A stretch of DNA of 36,691 nt, from IMG/VR virus record IMGVR_UViG_3300045988_165663, positions 1 through 36,691 of that record. One strand, 5' to 3'. Numbering within the stretch: position 1 is the first letter of the stretch; the number at the start of each line of letters is the position of its first letter. The notes beneath the pieces are model-generated. The model searched no databases. It saw only the letters and a list, made by a program, of their open reading frames with translations, and was not told the origin of the DNA. Of this stretch, positions 1 through 36,691 are shown piece after piece. The translations under genes were made by a program, and so were the position numbers. The stretch comes from a virus.

Positions 1-607
1 ACAGCACTTGAACTATTACCAGCCCTTTATAAGCATGATAGAAGCAAACACAGACGAGCCTTTAGCAGCGACCGCTTACAAATCATGGTGGGCTTTAGAT
101 GGTAACCCGCTTTTTGGAACCATCACAAGGCTATCAAATGCAGGGCTTACAGCACAAACGCCTAGCGGATATTTAGAGATAGGGGGGGCTACTCCAAATG
201 CAAAATATAACTTTAACGATTATCCGCGTGTAAAGAGAGCTATACAAGCCGGATATGCCAGCGAGTTTTTTACAAACAACAACGACGATACATTTAGCAT
301 TGTGGATTTAAGAGGGCGATTCTTTAGGATATGGAGTAACGGCGGGGATATTGATAGTGCTAGGACTTTTAACACATTGCAAGGCGATGCAATAAGGGAT
401 TTTAATATTACACAAGATGGCAATAATAGAGCCTTTAACTTTCCTAATGGAGGTAATTATTGGGTAGCACCAACCTCAAATGCATTTATCCTAGGTCAAA
501 TGTCAATTTACGGCAAACCTAGCAGAGCAGGGGTGCCAACAACAAGTGGTGCTAACGCAGAGAATAGACCTTATAACTTCAACATTCGAATGTTTATAAA
601 AGTTTGA
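1..607 (+). CDS. tail fibre / receptor-binding protein, C-terminal part (gene wraps the circular junction; N-terminal part is 36235..36572)
   Basis: ORF-track ORF 8..607 is the in-frame continuation of the ORF opening at ATG 36235 (36580-36235=345, divisible by 3). It is the last gene of the baseplate/tail operon. The sequence is Gly/Asn-rich and fibre-like. The combined product is about 314 aa. Confidence 0.55.
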   Translation, partial: QHLNYYQPFISMIEANTDEPLAATAYKSWWALDGNPLFGTITRLSNAGLTAQTPSGYLEIGGATPNAKYNFNDYPRVKRAIQAGYASEFFTNNNDDTFSIVDLRGRFFRIWSNGGDIDSARTFNTLQGDAIRDFNITQDGNNRAFNFPNGGNYWVAPTSNAFILGQMSIYGKPSRAGVPTTSGANAENRPYNFNIRMFIKV

Positions 608-2987: not shown

Positions 2988-3629
2988 ATGACTACTGAAG
3001 TTATAATGCAAAGAGAGCTATTGGGTGATTTTGTAAGCCAAAAAAGCAAAAGTGGATTTTTTAGTGCTACCGATTTATTTAGAGTTGGCAATAAATGGAG
3101 ATTAGCAAATGGGTTTGATTCTAAAACAATGCAAGATTATTTGCAGACAAAAAATGCAAAAGAGTTTATTGCAGAGCTAAAAACTAAAAACAACGGCGAA
3201 ACGCCTTTAATTAGCGGTAGGGGTAGGGGGCATCATAGCTGGGTGCATCCTCTTTTGTTTATAGATATGGCATTGTGGATTAATCCAAAGCTAAAGATTG
3301 AAGTATATGAGTGGCTTTTTGATAGCCTTTTACAATATAGAAACAACAGCGGGGATAGCTTTAAGAAAATGTGCGGGGCTTTACTTATAAGAGCAAACCA
3401 AACCGATTTTATAAAAAACATACAGAAGCTATGCAAACTCATACAAGTGGAGTGCGGGGTTAGTGATTGGAATAATGCAACACAAGAGCAACTAAGGTTA
3501 AGGGATAGAATCCACGAAAACATAGCCTTATTGGCAGATGTGCTAAACAATAACAAAGAAGCAATAAGGCTAGGAATCTACAAAGCAAAGAATAAAGACA
3601 ATAAAATAGACTATTCTCAAATGGTGTAG
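2988..3629 (+). CDS. KilA-N domain DNA-binding protein (anti-repressor/Bro-like)
   Basis: N-terminal FSATDLFRVGNKW...SWVHPLLFIDMALWINPKLKIEVYEW matches the KilA-N/APSES fold signature. Confidence 0.75.
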   Translation: MTTEVIMQRELLGDFVSQKSKSGFFSATDLFRVGNKWRLANGFDSKTMQDYLQTKNAKEFIAELKTKNNGETPLISGRGRGHHSWVHPLLFIDMALWINPKLKIEVYEWLFDSLLQYRNNSGDSFKKMCGALLIRANQTDFIKNIQKLCKLIQVECGVSDWNNATQEQLRLRDRIHENIALLADVLNNNKEAIRLGIYKAKNKDNKIDYSQMV

Positions 3630-8999: not shown

Positions 9000-9062
9000 C
9001 AATTAAGTATTTTTTAAGAAATAATTACTTATAATTACACACATATAAATAAAGGAGCTTAT
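9000..9062 (+). promoter_or_regulatory. promoter/RBS cassette copy (TATAAT 9030..9035)
   Basis: AATTAAGTATTTTTTAAGAAATAATTACTTATAATTACAC...ATAAAGGAGCTTATATG. Confidence 0.45.
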
Positions 9063-9692
9063 ATGGAAAAAACAATCTACAAAAAGTTAATGGAAATACA
9101 GTCGAGTTTAAAGGCTAACAAAAGCCGTTTTAATAAGTTTGGGGGCTTTTCATACAGAAGCGCAGAGGATATTTTGGAAGCAGTGAAGCCCTTGCTAAAA
9201 CAAAATGGCTTAGTGCTTGTTTGTAGTGATAGTATAGACAATGGAATCCTAACCGCTACTTATAGCTTAATTGATGTGGATACCGGCGAATCGGTTACTA
9301 ATAGCGCAGTGGCTATTGTAGGCGAGCATAAAGGTATGAGTGCAGAGCAGAACACGGGGTGCGCTAGTAGCTATGCAAGGAAATACGCACTTAATGGCTT
9401 GTTTGCTATCGATGATAGCAGTGCAGACCCGGATTCTATGCCAGCAGAAAAAGAAGCTAAGCCTATGCCAGCAGAAAAATCTAAAGCAAAGAGCGAGCTA
9501 TTGGAAGCTAAAAAGCTACTAATGAAAGCCTTTAATGATGCCGGTGTAAAAAACAATAACGATATTAAGGAAATCTTGGAGTCAATCAAACTAGATACAA
9601 ACAATCCGGAAACAATAAAGGAATTTTTAAGTTTAAACCATAGAGAGATTATCCGAGAAAACATGAGAAAAATTGCAGAGAAGGTATTTTAA
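9063..9692 (+). CDS. single-strand annealing protein, Erf-like
   Basis: N-terminal KLMEIQSSL...FSYRSAEDILEAVKPLLKQNGL and central GCASSYARKYALNGLFAIDD resemble Erf-family SSAPs. Sits in an exonuclease-SSAP-SSB gene order. Confidence 0.55.
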   Translation: MEKTIYKKLMEIQSSLKANKSRFNKFGGFSYRSAEDILEAVKPLLKQNGLVLVCSDSIDNGILTATYSLIDVDTGESVTNSAVAIVGEHKGMSAEQNTGCASSYARKYALNGLFAIDDSSADPDSMPAEKEAKPMPAEKSKAKSELLEAKKLLMKAFNDAGVKNNNDIKEILESIKLDTNNPETIKEFLSLNHREIIRENMRKIAEKVF

Positions 9693-9694
9693 GT

Positions 9695-9701
9695 GGGGGG
9701 G
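9695..9701 (+). repeat. poly-G (G7) forming the RBS of ssb
   Basis: TAAgtGGGGGGGtgctaaATG read directly. Confidence 0.7.
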
Positions 9702-9707
9702 TGCTAA

Positions 9708-10169
9708 ATGCTTAATAATCTATCAATCTTAGGACGCGTTACAAAACCGCTAGAATTAAGGTATTTGCAGAATGGAACAGCGGTGCTAAATTTCGATATA
9801 GCAAACTCTCTCAAGGTAAAAGATAGCGAGCCAGTTGTTACATATCTTAGGTGCGTGTGCTATGGTAGAGGTGCAGAGGTTATTAATCAGTTTGTAGGAA
9901 AAGGGGATAGAGTGCTTTTGCAAGGGGAGTTAAGGCAAAATAGCTACAAAGACTCTACTGGTGCTACAAAGACTTATCACTACTTGCAAGTGAATAATTT
10001 TGACTTTATAGAATTTAAGAACAAAAAACAAACACAAAATCCAGAAGCAACACAACAAGCACAAGGTAAGCAAGGGGAGAGCATTATGGGATATGTTAAA
10101 GATGCCATGAAACCAAAAACCCAGAAAACAATAGACTTTGAAATATCAGACGATGATATACCATTTTAA
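9708..10169 (+). CDS. ssb: single-stranded DNA-binding protein
   Basis: OB-fold N-terminus (LSILGRVTKPLELRYLQNGTAVLNFDIA), Gln/Gly-rich linker and acidic C-terminal tail DDDIPF. Confidence 0.9.
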   Translation: MLNNLSILGRVTKPLELRYLQNGTAVLNFDIANSLKVKDSEPVVTYLRCVCYGRGAEVINQFVGKGDRVLLQGELRQNSYKDSTGATKTYHYLQVNNFDFIEFKNKKQTQNPEATQQAQGKQGESIMGYVKDAMKPKTQKTIDFEISDDDIPF

Positions 10170-10177
10170 AAGGAGTA

Positions 10178-10438
10178 TTGATGGAATTTAAGTTTAAAGC
10201 ACACAAACAATATAGTAGAAAAGATGTAGCTAAAGCCTTTAATAAGACTATTTACAATATAGACACACAATCCAGAAAATATAAAGCAAACGGGGGCAGA
10301 AAAGGGCTTTTAAATAGTAACCAGCAAGTGCCTTTCGTGGTATTTGCAAGCAGAATAATAAGAAACACGCCAGAGGAGTTTTGGGGCTTTTTCTTAGATG
10401 ATAACAACTTTACAAACTTTGATATTGTTAAGGATTAA
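10178..10438 (+). CDS. hypothetical protein (86 aa)
   Basis: ORF with RBS AAAGGAG. Confidence 0.45.
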   Translation: MMEFKFKAHKQYSRKDVAKAFNKTIYNIDTQSRKYKANGGRKGLLNSNQQVPFVVFASRIIRNTPEEFWGFFLDDNNFTNFDIVKD

Positions 10439-10442
10439 TGGC

Positions 10443-10682
10443 TTGAAATATATTCTTTTGCTTATGTGCGTGGTTGTGCTTGGTGGGTGCTTTAGTACTA
10501 AAGAGAGGGTAGTGTATATCCCCCAAAGATGCGATATAATCTACCCAGCTTATCCATTGCCTAGAGGCAATGCAGTAGAAAACCTTAAAGAGCTTGCTAT
10601 TTACACAGAGAAGCTAGAATGCTCCTTAGATTTTTGCATAAACGGCGAGAATCTTATACCAAATTGCAAGATTGAGAGGTAA
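10443..10682 (+). CDS. lipoprotein (TTG start; signal MKYILLLMCVVVLGGC, lipobox LGG-C)
   Basis: In-frame TTG 10443 lies 8 nt after AAGGA. Classic lipoprotein signal peptide with four further Cys. Candidate o-spanin or superinfection-exclusion lipoprotein. Confidence 0.45.
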   Translation: MKYILLLMCVVVLGGCFSTKERVVYIPQRCDIIYPAYPLPRGNAVENLKELAIYTEKLECSLDFCINGENLIPNCKIER

Positions 10683-10692
10683 AGGGTTGTTA

Positions 10693-10854
10693 ATGCTTAA
10701 GCGAATGTTTTTTTATTTCAGATGGTTTTTAATTGGCAAAAATCATTGCATGGTTAGCGATGAAATGAAGTGCTTGTTTTGGGTGTTTCACAAGACTCTT
10801 TGGTGTGCGATTAGTTTTTCTTTGTGTTTTACTTTCTACATGATTTTTTTATAA
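10693..10854 (+). CDS. small aromatic/hydrophobic protein (possible membrane peptide)
   Basis: ORF-track ORF 10672..10854, trimmed to ATG 10693 (MLKRMFFYFRWFLIG...). Weak call. Confidence 0.25.
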   Translation: MLKRMFFYFRWFLIGKNHCMVSDEMKCLFWVFHKTLWCAISFSLCFTFYMIFL

Positions 10855-10864
10855 GTTTCTAGGA

Positions 10865-10873
10865 GGGGGGGGG
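10865..10873 (+). repeat. poly-G (G9) forming the RBS of the 10880 membrane-protein gene
   Basis: aggaGGGGGGGGGtgtgtaTTG read directly. The TTG start lies 6 nt downstream. Confidence 0.8.
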
Positions 10874-10879
10874 TGTGTA

Positions 10880-11176
10880 TTGACTCAACATGAAATAGAG
10901 CAGCTTTTAAGCCTAATACCCATCTTTTTGATTGGAATCTTGGTTGGAATTTCTAGCTATTTAACGCAGGAAACAGAAGCAAAAAAGACTTTCAAATATC
11001 TATTAAAGCAAATATTGCTTAGCGTATCTTTATGCTTAATTGTATTTAGCTTGCTTAGCATTTCAGAGTTGCCGTATCTTGCAAAAATAGGAATATCATG
11101 CGCCTTTGGATTCTTTGGAATAGACAAAGCCTTAGATATAGTTAAAAATATCCTTAGCCTAAAGGGTGGCAAGTGA
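10880..11176 (+). CDS. membrane protein, 2-3 TM (holin-like candidate)
   Basis: TTG start. Hydrophobic segments LSLIPIFLIGILVGISSYL, ILLSVSLCLIVFSLLSI and ISCAFGFFGI. Confidence 0.5.
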   Translation: MTQHEIEQLLSLIPIFLIGILVGISSYLTQETEAKKTFKYLLKQILLSVSLCLIVFSLLSISELPYLAKIGISCAFGFFGIDKALDIVKNILSLKGGK

Positions 11177-11382
11177 TTTACTTCAGAGTCTTAGTTTTAT
11201 ACATATTCACATTAAGCGTTTCATGCAACATATACCTAGCGATATACTTAAACGATATGAAAAAGGCTTTGGGTTTATACAAAGAGATTATTTACGATGC
11301 CACACATATAGACTTGAACTTGTTAAGAGAAGCAGTTATCGACAAGATAATCAGCGACAAGGAAAATGTTAAGTATAAATAA
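11173..11382 (+). CDS. hypothetical small protein (GTGA-overlapped)
   Basis: GTG 11173 overlaps stop 11174..11176. N-terminal hydrophobic stretch. Weak call. Confidence 0.3.
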   Translation: MIYFRVLVLYIFTLSVSCNIYLAIYLNDMKKALGLYKEIIYDATHIDLNLLREAVIDKIISDKENVKYK

Positions 11383-11677
11383 ATGCCTAATTCTTGGAAT
11401 CGGCTTTGCATTTATCTCATTGGCAACGGGTCTCTTTTACTATAAAAACAAATATGAAAACGCATTGGTTAAGCTAGGCAGTGTGGAAAATAGCCTAGAT
11501 ATACAAAACAAGGCTATAAAGCAAAAGGAGTTGGCATTAGAGGCTTATAAAAATAATCTTAAGGATATAGAGACAAACATTAAGAGCAGGTATAAAAGCG
11601 TTAATGTTTCACATGAAAACTGCGAGAGCGAGCTTAAGGAAATAAATAGGATTTTAGAGGTTTTTTATAATAGATAA
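11366..11677 (+). CDS. N-terminal TM + periplasmic coiled-coil protein (i-spanin-like candidate)
   Basis: LILGIGFAFISLATGLFYY followed by a heptad-rich region KAIKQKELALEAYKNNLKDIETNIK. This is the Rz-like architecture. Confidence 0.4.
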   Translation: MLSINKCLILGIGFAFISLATGLFYYKNKYENALVKLGSVENSLDIQNKAIKQKELALEAYKNNLKDIETNIKSRYKSVNVSHENCESELKEINRILEVFYNR

Positions 11678-11688
11678 GGGGGCTTATC

Positions 11689-12072
11689 TTGAGAGGTTTT
11701 AATAAGTTTAGAAACATAAAGATAAATAATGCCACTTTTGGCAAATTCGATTCTACATTGGAATACAACACTTTTTTGTATCTCCTAGCACTACAACAAC
11801 ACGGGAAAATATCAGAGTTAAAAAGACAAGTAGCAATCGATTTAACTCCGCTAAAGCAAAAGCATAAGGTTAAGTATGTATGCGATTTTCTCTATAAAGA
11901 CAAGGAACGCGGGTTAATTATTGCAGACGCTAAAGGTATGTTAAGGCCAGAGTATAGAGTTAAGAGAGAGTGGTTGTTATACCAGTTTAAGGGATTTGTT
12001 TTTATTGAATTCTACAAAGAGAAAATAAAAGAGTATCTGCCATCAGGGAGTATTGATATTTTTAGTAATTAA
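11689..12072 (+). CDS. DUF1064-like phage protein (predicted restriction-endonuclease-like fold)
   Basis: FDSTLEYNTFLYLLALQQHGKISELKRQVAIDLTP...VKYVCDFLYKDKERGLIIADAKG matches the pattern recalled for DUF1064 phage proteins. TTG start with GGGGG RBS. Confidence 0.5.
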   Translation: MRGFNKFRNIKINNATFGKFDSTLEYNTFLYLLALQQHGKISELKRQVAIDLTPLKQKHKVKYVCDFLYKDKERGLIIADAKGMLRPEYRVKREWLLYQFKGFVFIEFYKEKIKEYLPSGSIDIFSN

Positions 12073-12130
12073 GTATTATTTAAGAATAAATAGTTATAAT
12101 TACAGCGTAAATTTAAATAAAGGAGCTAGA
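12068..12130 (+). promoter_or_regulatory. promoter/RBS cassette, near-consensus copy (TATAAT 12095..12100)
   Basis: TAATTAAGTATTATTTAAGAATAAATAGTTATAATTACAGCG...ATAAAGGAGCTAGAATG. Confidence 0.55.
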
Positions 12131-12874
12131 ATGAAAAGAGAGATAGAATATATCTATGGGGATAAAGACAATAATATACTAAGACAACGCGTTTCTAAGT
12201 TAGGCAATATAAGACACGGGCTTACGATATGTTATTACAATGCGAGAACCCCTTGCAATATAAGACACGGGCTTACGATATGTTATTACAATGTGAGAAC
12301 CCCTTATCGCAAGATTCTTTATAAGTTTGGCAAGAGGGTTGCAGAATTATTCTTGTTTGAGAATAGCAAAGGCGATATTGTAAAGTCTAAGACAAACTCT
12401 TTTTCTGAATTAGTCAAAGAGGGCAGAAAAACCATATTAAAGGAATGGCAAGCAACAAAAAGAGGGGTGTTTTTAAAATCTGAAGCAGAAATAAAGAATG
12501 GTGTTTTGCATGGCAAAAAAGTCGTTTATGATTCTGATGGCTGGGTTAGTCAAATTATGCAATATAGAGATGGTAAGCTTGAGGGCGCGTCTTATTCTTA
12601 CAACAAAGATGCTGATATTGTAACCGAGATAAATTATAAAAATGATGTTAGACACGGCGAGGCTTTTCTTGTTGGAAGCTCCATGTTTGGCGAGGGCGCG
12701 CTTACAAAAGGTGTGCGAGTTTTAAGCGATAAATCCACTAGTAATAAAGAGTTTGTAGCACTATATGAAAATGGCAATGTAATCGAGTTATATTTCTCTA
12801 GGTTTGGCATAAAAATAGCAAAGGTGCATGAGAATATGATTAGTGAAATCATATTGCACGGGGATTTACCATAA
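12131..12874 (+). CDS. MORN-repeat-containing protein, paralogue 4, with an in-frame 51-bp tandem duplication near the N-terminus
   Basis: Start chosen at ATG 12131 (RBS AAGGAG) rather than the track's 12053. C-terminal KNGVLHGKKVVYDSDGWVSQIMQYRDGKLEGASYSYNKDADIVTEINYKNDVRHGEAF MORN units. Duplication NIRHGLTICYYNARTPC / NIRHGLTICYYNVRTPY. Confidence 0.6.
   Translation: MKREIEYIYGDKDNNILRQRVSKLGNIRHGLTICYYNARTPCNIRHGLTICYYNVRTPYRKILYKFGKRVAELFLFENSKGDIVKSKTNSFSELVKEGRKTILKEWQATKRGVFLKSEAEIKNGVLHGKKVVYDSDGWVSQIMQYRDGKLEGASYSYNKDADIVTEINYKNDVRHGEAFLVGSSMFGEGALTKGVRVLSDKSTSNKEFVALYENGNVIELYFSRFGIKIAKVHENMISEIILHGDLP
12206..12307 (+). repeat. 51-bp direct tandem duplication (2 copies, 2 mismatches) inside the CDS
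   Basis: AATATAAGACACGGGCTTACGATATGTTATTACAATG(C/T)GAGAACCCCTT(GC/AT) at 12206..12256 and 12257..12307. Confidence 0.85.
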
Positions 12875-12882
12875 GGGGGGGG
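12875..12882 (+). repeat. poly-G (G8) between the stop at 12872..12874 and ATG 12885
   Basis: ccaTAAGGGGGGGGttATG read directly. Confidence 0.8.
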
Positions 12883-12884
12883 TT

Positions 12885-13058
12885 ATGACATTGTATGTTA
12901 CCTATAAAGACGGCAGGCATTCTTATATTGAAACGAAAAATATGGTAGATATTAAAGATTCTAAAGGGGATAAATACGTTGTCTTGAGTGAAAAAGAGTA
13001 TAAAAAGTTGCTTGCAGAGATTGAGTATTTAAAGAAAAATCCAGTTTTATTTAATTAA
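12885..13058 (+). CDS. small hypothetical protein (57 aa)
   Basis: ATG 12885 lies right after the G8 tract. The ORF-track version (12843..) is extended upstream only through the G tract. Confidence 0.4.
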   Translation: MTLYVTYKDGRHSYIETKNMVDIKDSKGDKYVVLSEKEYKKLLAEIEYLKKNPVLFN

Positions 13059-13113
13059 GTAAAGATTAAGTAATAAATAAATATAATTATACAAATTAAA
13101 TAAAGGAGCTAGA
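13053..13113 (+). promoter_or_regulatory. promoter/RBS cassette copy (TATAAT 13082..13087)
   Basis: TAATTAAGTAAAGATTAAGTAATAAATAAATATAATTATACA...ATAAAGGAGCTAGAGTG. Confidence 0.45.
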
Positions 13114-13410
13114 GTGCAAGAGGTTAAGGAAGCATTAAAGAATATCTTTATGGGTATAGCGCTAGGCATTGTGATGGCAGGATTCGTGTTATCCATTATT
13201 GAAGGACGGCTATTGCTGGCATCGAGAGAGAATTACGGCTTAATATCTTTTTATATATTTGTGCTAATTACTACATTGTCAATTTTTGTTTATCTCTTTA
13301 AAGATGGGATAAACAACACTACTTTAGCAATAGGCATTCTAAGCGCAATTGGGTTTGTAATAAGCGAGATTCTTATATCCCTTGACTTAGTGCTAGCTTT
13401 TTCATTTTAA
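13114..13410 (+). CDS. membrane protein, 3 TM (holin / superinfection-exclusion candidate)
   Basis: GTG start. Hydrophobic helices GIALGIVMAGFVLSII, LISFYIFVLITTLSIFVYLF and LAIGILSAIGFVISEILI. Confidence 0.5.
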   Translation: MQEVKEALKNIFMGIALGIVMAGFVLSIIEGRLLLASRENYGLISFYIFVLITTLSIFVYLFKDGINNTTLAIGILSAIGFVISEILISLDLVLAFSF

Positions 13411-13418
13411 GGGGTGCA

Positions 13419-13619
13419 GTGATGGCAATGTTTGTATGGTTTTTAGTGCTAACAAGTGCCAGCATTTATGCGCTTTTTGGAGTTGCTATCGAAGCAGGGA
13501 AAGAATCTTGCTTTAAGGTTAAGTGGTATTGGTGGCTAATTGTAGGAGGGCTATGTATGCTCTTTTTATGCTTGGATATTTATTTGCTATATAAGACTTT
13601 TAATGCTTTAAGGGCCTAA
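13419..13619 (+). CDS. membrane protein, 2 TM
   Basis: FVWFLVLTSASIYALFGVAI and WWLIVGGLCMLFLCLDIYLL. Confidence 0.45.
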   Translation: MMAMFVWFLVLTSASIYALFGVAIEAGKESCFKVKWYWWLIVGGLCMLFLCLDIYLLYKTFNALRA

Positions 13620-27889: not shown

Positions 27890-27901
27890 GGGGGGTAAAT
27901 C

Positions 27902-36234: not shown

Positions 36235-36691
36235 ATGCCTATAACTAACGCGCCTTTTTTTAAATACGCTTTTGCACAAAACGGGGATAAGACTCCTATA
36301 CCACAAGACCAAGACCCAAAAGGTAAAGTAAGCTATGAAGTAGGCTTTGGTGGTATTTACAGCAGAGACCCGTTAGCGGACGGGGATTATGTATTAAGAC
36401 CGGATTTTAACCAGCTAATGTTTGATACAACCAACGCTATAAGGCAAATGCAAATAAACGGCGCTAACCTTTGGAGAGCAGAGGTAGCAAATAATGGTGG
36501 CTATCCAGCCGGCGCGGTTGTTTTAGTAAAAATGCAAATGAACGGGGTTATCGATAGTGGTAGCGATTTTGTACAGCACTTGAACTATTACCAGCCCTTT
36601 ATAAGCATGATAGAAGCAAACACAGACGAGCCTTTAGCAGCGACCGCTTACAAATCATGGTGGGCTTTAGATGGTAACCCGCTTTTTGGAA
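36235..36691 (+). CDS. tail fibre / receptor-binding protein, N-terminal part (continues through the circular junction into 1..607)
   Basis: ATG 36235 with RBS AAAGGA. MPITNAPFFKYAFAQNGDKTPIPQ... The last 119 bp are identical to 1..119 and the frame is continuous with ORF 8..607. Confidence 0.55.
   Translation, partial: MPITNAPFFKYAFAQNGDKTPIPQDQDPKGKVSYEVGFGGIYSRDPLADGDYVLRPDFNQLMFDTTNAIRQMQINGANLWRAEVANNGGYPAGAVVLVKMQMNGVIDSGSDFVQHLNYYQPFISMIEANTDEPLAATAYKSWWALDGNPLFG
36573..36691 (+). repeat. 119-bp terminal direct repeat identical to 1..119 (circular-genome overlap)
   Basis: acagcacttgaactattaccagccctttataagcatgatagaagc... is present at both ends. Confidence 0.95.

Follow-up and report, generated by a model that had tools for sequence, protein, structure and literature searches.

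The locus and its features

The stretch of DNA analysed here, referred to as the window, comprises all 36,691 nucleotides (nt) of IMG/VR virus record IMGVR_UViG_3300045988_165663 and carries a run of nine G residues (G9) at the Shine-Dalgarno (SD) position of a putative holin gene with a TTG start codon. Tracts at this position are hypervariable in length between related strains, and on the account favoured below this variation would have little effect on holin translation. The features on which the analysis turns are given below with their window coordinates and strand; n denotes the number of Gs in the tract, and ORF an open reading frame.

10865-10873, + strand: G9 homopolymer, slippage-prone, G7-G12 in related copies
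10861-10866, + strand: AGGAGG, a perfect SD core at the 5' edge of the tract, n+4 nt from the TTG (13 nt at G9)
10869-10875, + strand: 3'-anchored SD register GGGGGUG, predicted to pair most strongly with the 16S core and unaffected by tract length, its Gs ending 6 nt before the TTG
10873-10893, + strand: out-of-frame GTG mini-ORF (GTG TGT ATT GAC TCA ACA TGA), a possible decoy start
10875-10883, + strand: second out-of-frame GTG (GTG TAT TGA), its TGA overlapping the TTG start (TTGA)
10880-11176, + strand: holin gene, 98 amino acids (aa), TTG start, LydA-type (PF16083)
10693-10854, + strand: 53-aa membrane ORF, antiholin-like, matching phrog_16537 (1.2e-9), homologue of the 'putative antiholin' F336_037

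The tract stands in the + strand context tttctAGGA-GGGGGGGGG-tgtgta-TTG and is separated by a 6-nt spacer (10874-10879) from the TTG at 10880, and the placement given in a preliminary description of this DNA, a G9 run exactly at 10865-10873 and 6 nt before that TTG, was confirmed from the sequence. Under a first-order Markov model (36.4% G+C) only 0.055 G runs of at least nine residues were expected in the window, and the run was therefore regarded as non-random; its length reaches the instability threshold of Campylobacter simple sequence repeats (G/C of 7-8 or more). No ORF of at least 30 aa spans the tract on either strand. As had been proposed, therefore, no reading frame crosses it and a change in its length cannot cause a frameshift. 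Neither a promoter of the Escherichia coli type nor a terminator was found near the tract. The sequence TATAAG following T7 (10844-10851) was considered as a possible Campylobacter-type -10 element and dropped; its conservation does not extend to distant relatives, and it falls within the final codons of the antiholin-like ORF. The overlap of the second GTG mini-ORF with the TTG (TTGA) recalls termination-reinitiation sites, and termination-reinitiation occurs at such stop/start overlaps in E. coli (PMC9841429).

The 98-aa product is, judging by its profile matches, very probably a LydA-type holin. It scored 36.8 bits (E = 4.3e-9) against Pfam family PF16083 (LydA, holin superfamily III), for which the curated cut-off is 28.4 bits, and matched four PHROGs annotated as 'holin', so that the earlier placing of the tract at the SD position of a holin-like membrane gene was upheld; its homologue in Campylobacter phage F336 is annotated hol (LydA-like). 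In an alignment from the first residue, 12 homologues (N-terminus MSExEFEQL...) pair with MTQHEIEQL of the window, beginning at the methionine encoded by the TTG, which fixes the start codon. Hydropathy analysis gave strong transmembrane (TM) segments at residues 9-25 and 45-61 and a weaker, amphipathic third at about 65-81, followed by a charged C-terminus (KNILSLKGGK). The three TM segments of the preliminary description were thus recovered only in part: two are strong and the third is weaker, and the F336 homologue is annotated N-out/C-out, which implies an even number.

Upstream, the antiholin-like ORF was missed by gene finders in every metagenome contig, and was aligned with F336_037 and its Helicobacter prophage counterparts, with which it has the motifs FxFRWFLIGKxHC and HKxLW in common. 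In the clade of the window 25 nt separate its stop codon from the holin TTG, a gap that the G tract occupies. In the distant relatives (F336 and the Helicobacter prophages) there is an overlap between this ORF and the holin start (ATGA), with the holin SD (GGAGG, AGAGG or AGGA) inside the last codons of the ORF. One 1-kb contig (L041, at about 480-530) has lost about 22 nt, and with them the T7-TAA-AGGA segment, so that the antiholin-like ORF is fused in frame, via G10, to the holin (P0013, 170 aa); this is either a real variant or a misassembly.

Variation in tract length among related copies

Copies of the locus were gathered by exact-protein look-ups of six holin alleles (P0001, P0002 and P0015-P0018) and the fused form P0013, and comprised the window and 35 further loci from ENA and Logan short-read metagenome assemblies (36 copies). 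Other searches returned nothing: megablast of positions 9000-13500 against annotated phages and the holin family alignment against 185,579 species-representative genomes each gave no match, no relatives of the holin protein were found in IMG/VR, and an exact 21-mer of the holin 5' end was absent from IMG/VR and from the JGI metagenomes. The window holin itself had no match by exact look-up, the collection copy (P0014) apparently beginning with L and not M.

Tract lengths in the 36 copies were G7 (2 copies), G8 (6), G9 (17), G10 (7), G11 (2) and G12 (2), with the mode at G9, so that the comparison of related copies suggested in the preliminary description did not yield one invariant length. The sequence flanking the tract was nearly invariant, every holin allele that had been sampled repeatedly occurred with several tract lengths, and control homopolymers were constant, including T7 at 10844 (35/35), A6 at 10981 (36/36) and other A6/T6 runs. 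On a neighbour-joining tree of the 28 flank haplotypes at least 13 length changes among six length classes were required, with inferred gains and losses of Gs in both directions. Tract length differed in none of 10 pairs with identical flanks and in all 17 pairs with 5-9 differences per ~397 flank nt, and the tract was the sole gap in alignments of 0.8-3 kb between three pairs of contigs 1.7-3.6% apart (L015/L019, L035/L039 and L031/L032). It is thus the most indel-prone site of the region, changing recurrently between strains and being inherited within them.

Within strains the length was stable. One strain assembled from four sequencing runs, with 3-6 kb flanks 100% identical, had G9 each time, and the non-modal forms G10, G8, G11 and an interrupted G7 were each common to contigs 0.1-1% apart, some of which may be re-assemblies of one sample. 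No same-strain pair (identical flanks) differing in tract length was found, and in the only close pair of unequal length (L038/L039) a T-to-G substitution at the tract edge accounts for the difference. Switching is therefore not fast enough to scramble consensus sequences. Replication slippage is the probable cause of the changes in length.

Substitutions at the tract edge took the forms AGGA-GT-G9/10 (L001-L003 and L028), G7-T-G (L004 and L005) and run-lengthening T-to-G (L038 and L040). In L001-L003 (AGGA-GTG-G9) and L004-L005 (G7-TGTGTGTA) a GTG stands in frame upstream of the TTG, and gene callers report longer holins there, of 104 aa (MGGGCVL...) and 101 aa (MCVL...), respectively. The G run of L001-L003 would be coding in the longer form; neither upstream GTG has a properly spaced SD.

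Ribosome-binding geometry

To compare pairing across tract lengths, the 3' end of 16S ribosomal RNA, with an assumed sequence for the full tail, was slid along leaders carrying G4-G13. When 9-nt windows of the leader were paired with a 15-nt tail, the site ending 2-4 nt before the TTG held -12.3 to -12.8 kcal/mol for tracts of at least G5, and the AGGAGG site held -13.3 to -13.4 kcal/mol while receding by one base with every G added. In an unrestricted duplex the same best helix of 12 base pairs, ending 3 nt before the TTG, was obtained for G9-G13 (-18.3 to -18.4 kcal/mol), with values of -19.3 at G7 and -17.7 at G8. With the universal core CACCUCCU alone, a result that is independent of the assumed full tail, the 3'-anchored register was the strongest and was identical from G5 to G13 (-12.0 to -12.2 kcal/mol, against -10.4 for AGGAGG). 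Taken over the full tail and the core alone, the end of the best site lay 3-4 nt before the TTG.

The distance from AGGAGG to the TTG is n+4 nt, or 11-16 nt in the observed variants, compared with 4-9 nt for the other SDs of the genome. Since the invariant edge of the tract faces the start codon (GGGGG-UG-UGUA-UUG), slippage moves only the far boundary, and with the 3' register so anchored, SD-start spacing and strength are predicted to be essentially unchanged by it. The effect of tract length on translation is accordingly expected, on this modelling, to be small. A leader fold that would sequester the SD was sought and was no better than those of shuffled sequences (z = +0.86).

Origin of the tract

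Holin relatives at ~60% identity carry AAGGGGTGtta-ATG, AAAGGtttttt-ATG or GGAGTGgcaa-ATG before the gene, and no G/C run of at least six was found near the holin in them. The SD of two of these relatives (L006 and L007) is AAGGGGTG with an ATG start and corresponds to the 3'-anchored register of the window. The usual ribosome-binding site in the window genome is AAGGAG or AGGGGG. Among the 27 G runs of at least five residues in the window, 10 lie 2-10 nt before the start of an ORF of at least 50 aa, compared with 10% of all positions (p = 2e-4), and six of those 10, the holin tract among them, end exactly 6 nt before the start.

The same pattern extends to 151 kb of close relatives, in which G runs of at least seven all lie at SD positions, with two exceptions in the window itself, G7 at 182 and C9 at 2874. 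Such long runs precede the holin gene in every case, and in some cases the genes for SSB, a DnaD-like protein and a 57-aa product. The other G runs at SD positions in the window are as follows.

9695-9701, + strand: G7 tract, SD of the SSB gene, 6 nt before ATG 9708
12875-12882, + strand: G8 tract, directly after TAA and 2 nt before ATG 12885 (57-aa gene); G8 in the window only
27890-27895, + strand: G6 SD, 6 nt before ATG 27902, an ordinary G-run SD design

The SSB SD is G7, G8, G9 or G10 in four haplotypes, and G4, G5, interrupted or absent elsewhere (positions noted in relatives: L012 6079, L021 1687, L029 849); SSB is an independent case of poly-G expansion at an SD. Among its other forms, stop and start codons abut with no SD, or the run is interrupted, for example as GGGGTGGGG. 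At the position of the G8 tract relatives have GGGGGTTG, GGGGTGG or GGTGCGG, which are shorter or interrupted, and one relative (L013, 1575-1583) has a G9 tract, absent from the window, directly after TAA and 7 nt before the ATG of the DnaD-like gene. From these comparisons it seems that, in this phage group, short G-run SDs have given rise to long tracts again and again.

Mismatch repair is generally lacking in Campylobacter and Helicobacter, and presumably so in the host group of this phage. In Campylobacter jejuni, poly-G/C tracts have a modal length of 9, with a bias to insertion at G8/G9 and to deletion at G10/G11, and Bayliss et al. ascribe the modal length to mutational drivers and not to selection (PMC3401435). 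The length distribution of the holin tract has the same shape as this bias.

Interpretation and alternative explanations

With a probability of roughly 0.6, we consider the tract to be a G-run SD, expanded by slippage, whose variation leaves the working register untouched and is nearly neutral or weakly modulatory. The G9 run would act as the SD element of the TTG-initiated holin gene at the antiholin-holin junction, and would have expanded from the short kind of G-run SD on which many genes of this genome and, as AAGGGGTG with ATG, the holin gene of more distant relatives rely. Gains and losses of Gs by replication slippage would give each strain a heritable length between G7 and G12, most often G9. 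The best 16S-pairing register, formed by the last five Gs plus UG, would remain fixed at the 3' edge, 6 nt from the TTG, while slippage acts on the far side, so that SD-start spacing and strength would essentially be kept. Length variation would then be mainly a mutational by-product of having a G-run SD in a lineage prone to poly-G slippage, and would serve at most as a weak rheostat of holin translation, not as a switch.

Several points weigh against this account. The tract has at least seven Gs in all 36 copies, which represent 28 haplotypes up to ~6% different, and the SSB SD, unlike the holin tract, is usually short; so universal a long tract could reflect selection to keep it at the holin. 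The close clade joins the tract with a weak TTG start and two out-of-frame GUGs, from which AGGAGG is n-3 (6 nt at G9) and n-1 nt distant, so that both distances depend on tract length, and start choice at GUGUG is known to depend on SD spacing (PMC9841429). Quadruplex-aware folding gave an SD-masking two-tetrad G-quadruplex only at G8 and above. The thermodynamic comparison, moreover, leaves out kinetics, sliding of the 30S subunit and the effects of an over-strong SD, and its full 16S tail was an assumed sequence.

Much the same observations favour a second explanation, in which the tract is a contingency locus or rheostat whose length tunes holin translation, and with it the holin:antiholin ratio and lysis timing, and phage populations would carry heritable lysis-time variants. 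Three routes were considered, none of them through the proximal SD spacing: a shift of AGGAGG relative to the GUG decoys and the UUG, competition from out-of-register 30S sites, and masking of the SD by a G-quadruplex at G8 and above. Beyond the retention of a long tract in 36/36 copies, the start-choice effect at GUGUG and the quadruplex threshold, this explanation draws on the persistence of G8, G10 and G11 between contigs 0.1-1% diverged, which is compatible with selectable states; on the spacing between AGGAGG and the first GUG, which at n-3 is 4-9 nt for G7-G12 and so within the functional range; on the position of the tract right at the junction of the antiholin-like gene with the holin gene, a pair that overlaps and is coupled in distant relatives; and on phage lambda, in which altering the holin SD alters lysis time (bioRxiv 10.1101/2025.05.14.654169). 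Against it, the strongest and best-spaced register is independent of length, and the length distribution equals the mutational equilibrium of C. jejuni, so that no selection is needed to explain it. Similar expansion is seen at the SDs of the unrelated SSB, DnaD-like and 57-aa genes, and the tree, read by eye and with no neutral rate computed, holds about two edge-interruption events. The two-layer quadruplex energy of ViennaRNA is generous, and the leader fold was, as noted, not significant. Tuning by tract length is on balance a possibility to be taken seriously, though clearly not the likelier one, and its more specific form, a selected heritable rheostat in which the poly-G ribosome-binding site shifts UUG/GUG initiation or masks the SD by a quadruplex or RNA duplex, is doubtful.

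The mechanism put forward in the preliminary description, in which slippage alters the distance from SD to start and so switches holin translation up or down, is improbable. The AGGAGG core at 10861-10866 does move by 1 nt with every G, but it is 11-16 nt from the TTG in all variants, outside the 4-9 nt used elsewhere in the genome, and pairing is stronger in the register that the G run itself supplies, whose distance stays at 6 nt. The 3' edge keeps its place, and the GGGGG+UG register has the same position and energy from G5 to G13; the expected change in spacing was therefore not borne out for the site that is most likely in use.

Still less likely is targeting of the G repeat by a C/U-rich small RNA (sRNA) of the RepG kind, of host or phage origin and perhaps containing the C9 tract at 2874, with the outcome of regulation set by repeat length. 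A variable G repeat in an mRNA leader has a precedent in the same bacterial group, as reported where PMC8322730 cites Pernitzsch 2014, and the perfectly complementary C9 is intergenic and on the same strand. No Rfam family was found within the window, however, and the C9 was rejected as part of an sRNA, given that it lies in no hairpin loop, has neither a terminator nor a promoter-like signal nearby and gave a fold z of -0.89.

It is very unlikely, and largely refuted, that errors in sequencing or assembling a homopolymer account for the differences in length: all copies do come from short-read metagenome assemblies, in which long G runs are error-prone, but assembly noise was excluded because lengths were reproducible (G9 in all four runs of one strain, agreement within the G7, G8, G10 and G11 pairs or triplets) and tracked haplotypes, and because the nearby T7 and A6 controls never varied.

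Comparison with known systems

Campylobacter and Helicobacter are well known for hypermutable poly-G tracts. The contingency loci of C. jejuni (PMC3401435) resemble the holin tract in repeat type, host group, modal length (G9) and range (~7-12). They lie mostly within reading frames and are turned ON or OFF by frameshift, whereas the phage tract is outside any ORF and inside a ribosome-binding site, with no ON/OFF consequence predicted.

Poly-G tracts are also found in phages of the same host group. Hypermutable tracts in the coding sequence of a receptor-binding protein of Campylobacter Fletchervirus reportedly give phase variation by frameshift, as Sorensen et al. are said to have described in 2021. 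Those phages carry a homologous LydA-type holin, but the tract described here is the SD of the holin gene and is not coding, and in F336 the holin gene, which overlaps that of the antiholin, is preceded by an ordinary AGGA site.

Tracts in leaders are closer in position. A single-G insertion or deletion in the poly-G upstream of uspA1 of Moraxella catarrhalis is said to alter expression without a frameshift, in work attributed to Lafontaine in 2001. Likewise, a single-G leader indel in the poly-G of the espR 5' untranslated region of Mycobacterium tuberculosis alters expression with no frameshift (PMC11898584). Both tracts lie well away from the SD and exert their effect through leader folding or transcription, unlike the holin tract, which overlaps its SD and whose leader gave no significant fold. 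In the tlpB-hp0102 leader of Helicobacter pylori a variable G repeat is bound by the sRNA RepG (Pernitzsch 2014, as summarised in the relevant passage of PMC8322730). Both are variable G repeats in a Campylobacterota leader, and the C/U-rich partner here would be the 16S anti-SD. According to that passage the tlpB repeat lies upstream of the ribosome-binding site and has a dedicated sRNA, whereas here the repeat is the ribosome-binding site and the Rfam scan of the window found no sRNA partner.

In lambda, a weakened holin SD delays lysis and an optimised SD speeds it (bioRxiv 10.1101/2025.05.14.654169). The likeness to the lambda S gene lies in lysis timing set by the holin initiation rate and the holin:antiholin ratio, and in close alternative starts after one SD. 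The difference is that lambda relies on an RNA stem-loop and on a pair of in-frame starts within a single gene. In the phage described here the candidate antiholin is encoded upstream by a gene of its own, neither GUG is in frame, and the SD consists of a homopolymer that can mutate. In the literature searches no report came up of a phage lysis gene whose SD is a homopolymeric tract.

Phage genome, host group and other features

A direct terminal repeat of 119 base pairs (bp) (window 1-119 = 36573-36691; k = 119) indicated a circular assembly and hence a complete phage genome of ~36.57 kb. All genes of the window are on the + strand and include those for ERF, SSB, KilA-N, a DUF3799 nuclease and a D12 methyltransferase, together with structural genes for the large terminase, portal, a Mu-F-like protein, a DUF3383 sheath-like protein and baseplate J, a content that points to a myovirus-like phage. 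No integrase was found among the window ORFs scanned, and no tRNA or Rfam elements were found in the window.

The nearest terminases were those of the Campylobacter temperate phages PC22, PC11 and DA10 (39%) and of a Helicobacter prophage (38%), and the terminase of a contig from an uncultured Helicobacter metagenome-assembled genome (MAG) was 65% identical. In the annotated phage collection, holin homologues were found only in Campylobacter phages and Helicobacter prophages; the related contigs came from pig and gut metagenomes. These relationships support a host of the Helicobacter/Campylobacter type (Campylobacterota) from the pig gut, in keeping with the host group named in the preliminary description. 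The Helicobacter MAG locus (L011) has the structural module in common with the window but contained no holin homologue.

Further ORFs lie around the holin gene, as follows.

10398-10682, + strand: small protein with a lipobox-like signal (VLGGC), phrog_2291, a lipoprotein candidate upstream of the cassette
11173-11382, + strand: 69-aa ORF, opened by a GTG that overlaps the holin stop (GTGA), TM segment at the N-terminus, no family match
11366-11677, + strand: 103-aa protein with an N-terminal TM segment, an Rz-like spanin candidate, phrog_739 (2.6e-5)

No recognisable endolysin adjoins the holin cassette; the only endolysin candidate noticed, a DUF5675 / phrog_1501 protein (1519-2058), is encoded far from it. 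Two other homopolymers were recorded. A G7 run at 182-188 lies inside ORF 8/35-607 on the coding strand, where a change of one residue in either direction would shift the frame, and the C9 tract (2874-2882, + strand) lies in an AT-rich intergenic region of 200 nt upstream of the KilA-N gene (2988-3629). The C9 region of L042 belongs to a genome 100% identical to the window and is uninformative on C9 variability. The ORF at 12131-12874, whose protein has weak MORN-repeat similarity, contains a tandem duplication of 51 nt (17 aa) at about 12229-12330 (NIRHGLTICYYNARTPC / NIRHGLTICYYNVRTPY).

Significance

Should tract length influence translation, phages would have in it an uncomplicated, heritable means of varying lysis time, which is a central fitness trait; since lysis time in lambda responds to the holin SD, even a modest effect could be visible to selection. 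Were the rheostat to prove real, the tract would be a contingency locus in which the trait concerned is one of viral life history and not a surface antigen, and phage populations would vary in lysis timing both internally and from one another. The 36 natural alleles (G7-G12) already supply a set of tract lengths. If length is without effect, G-run ribosome-binding sites would still act as seeds of long poly-G tracts, and a tract anchored on the side of the start codon may vary freely without disturbing initiation, which counsels caution in calling every intergenic poly-G a switch.

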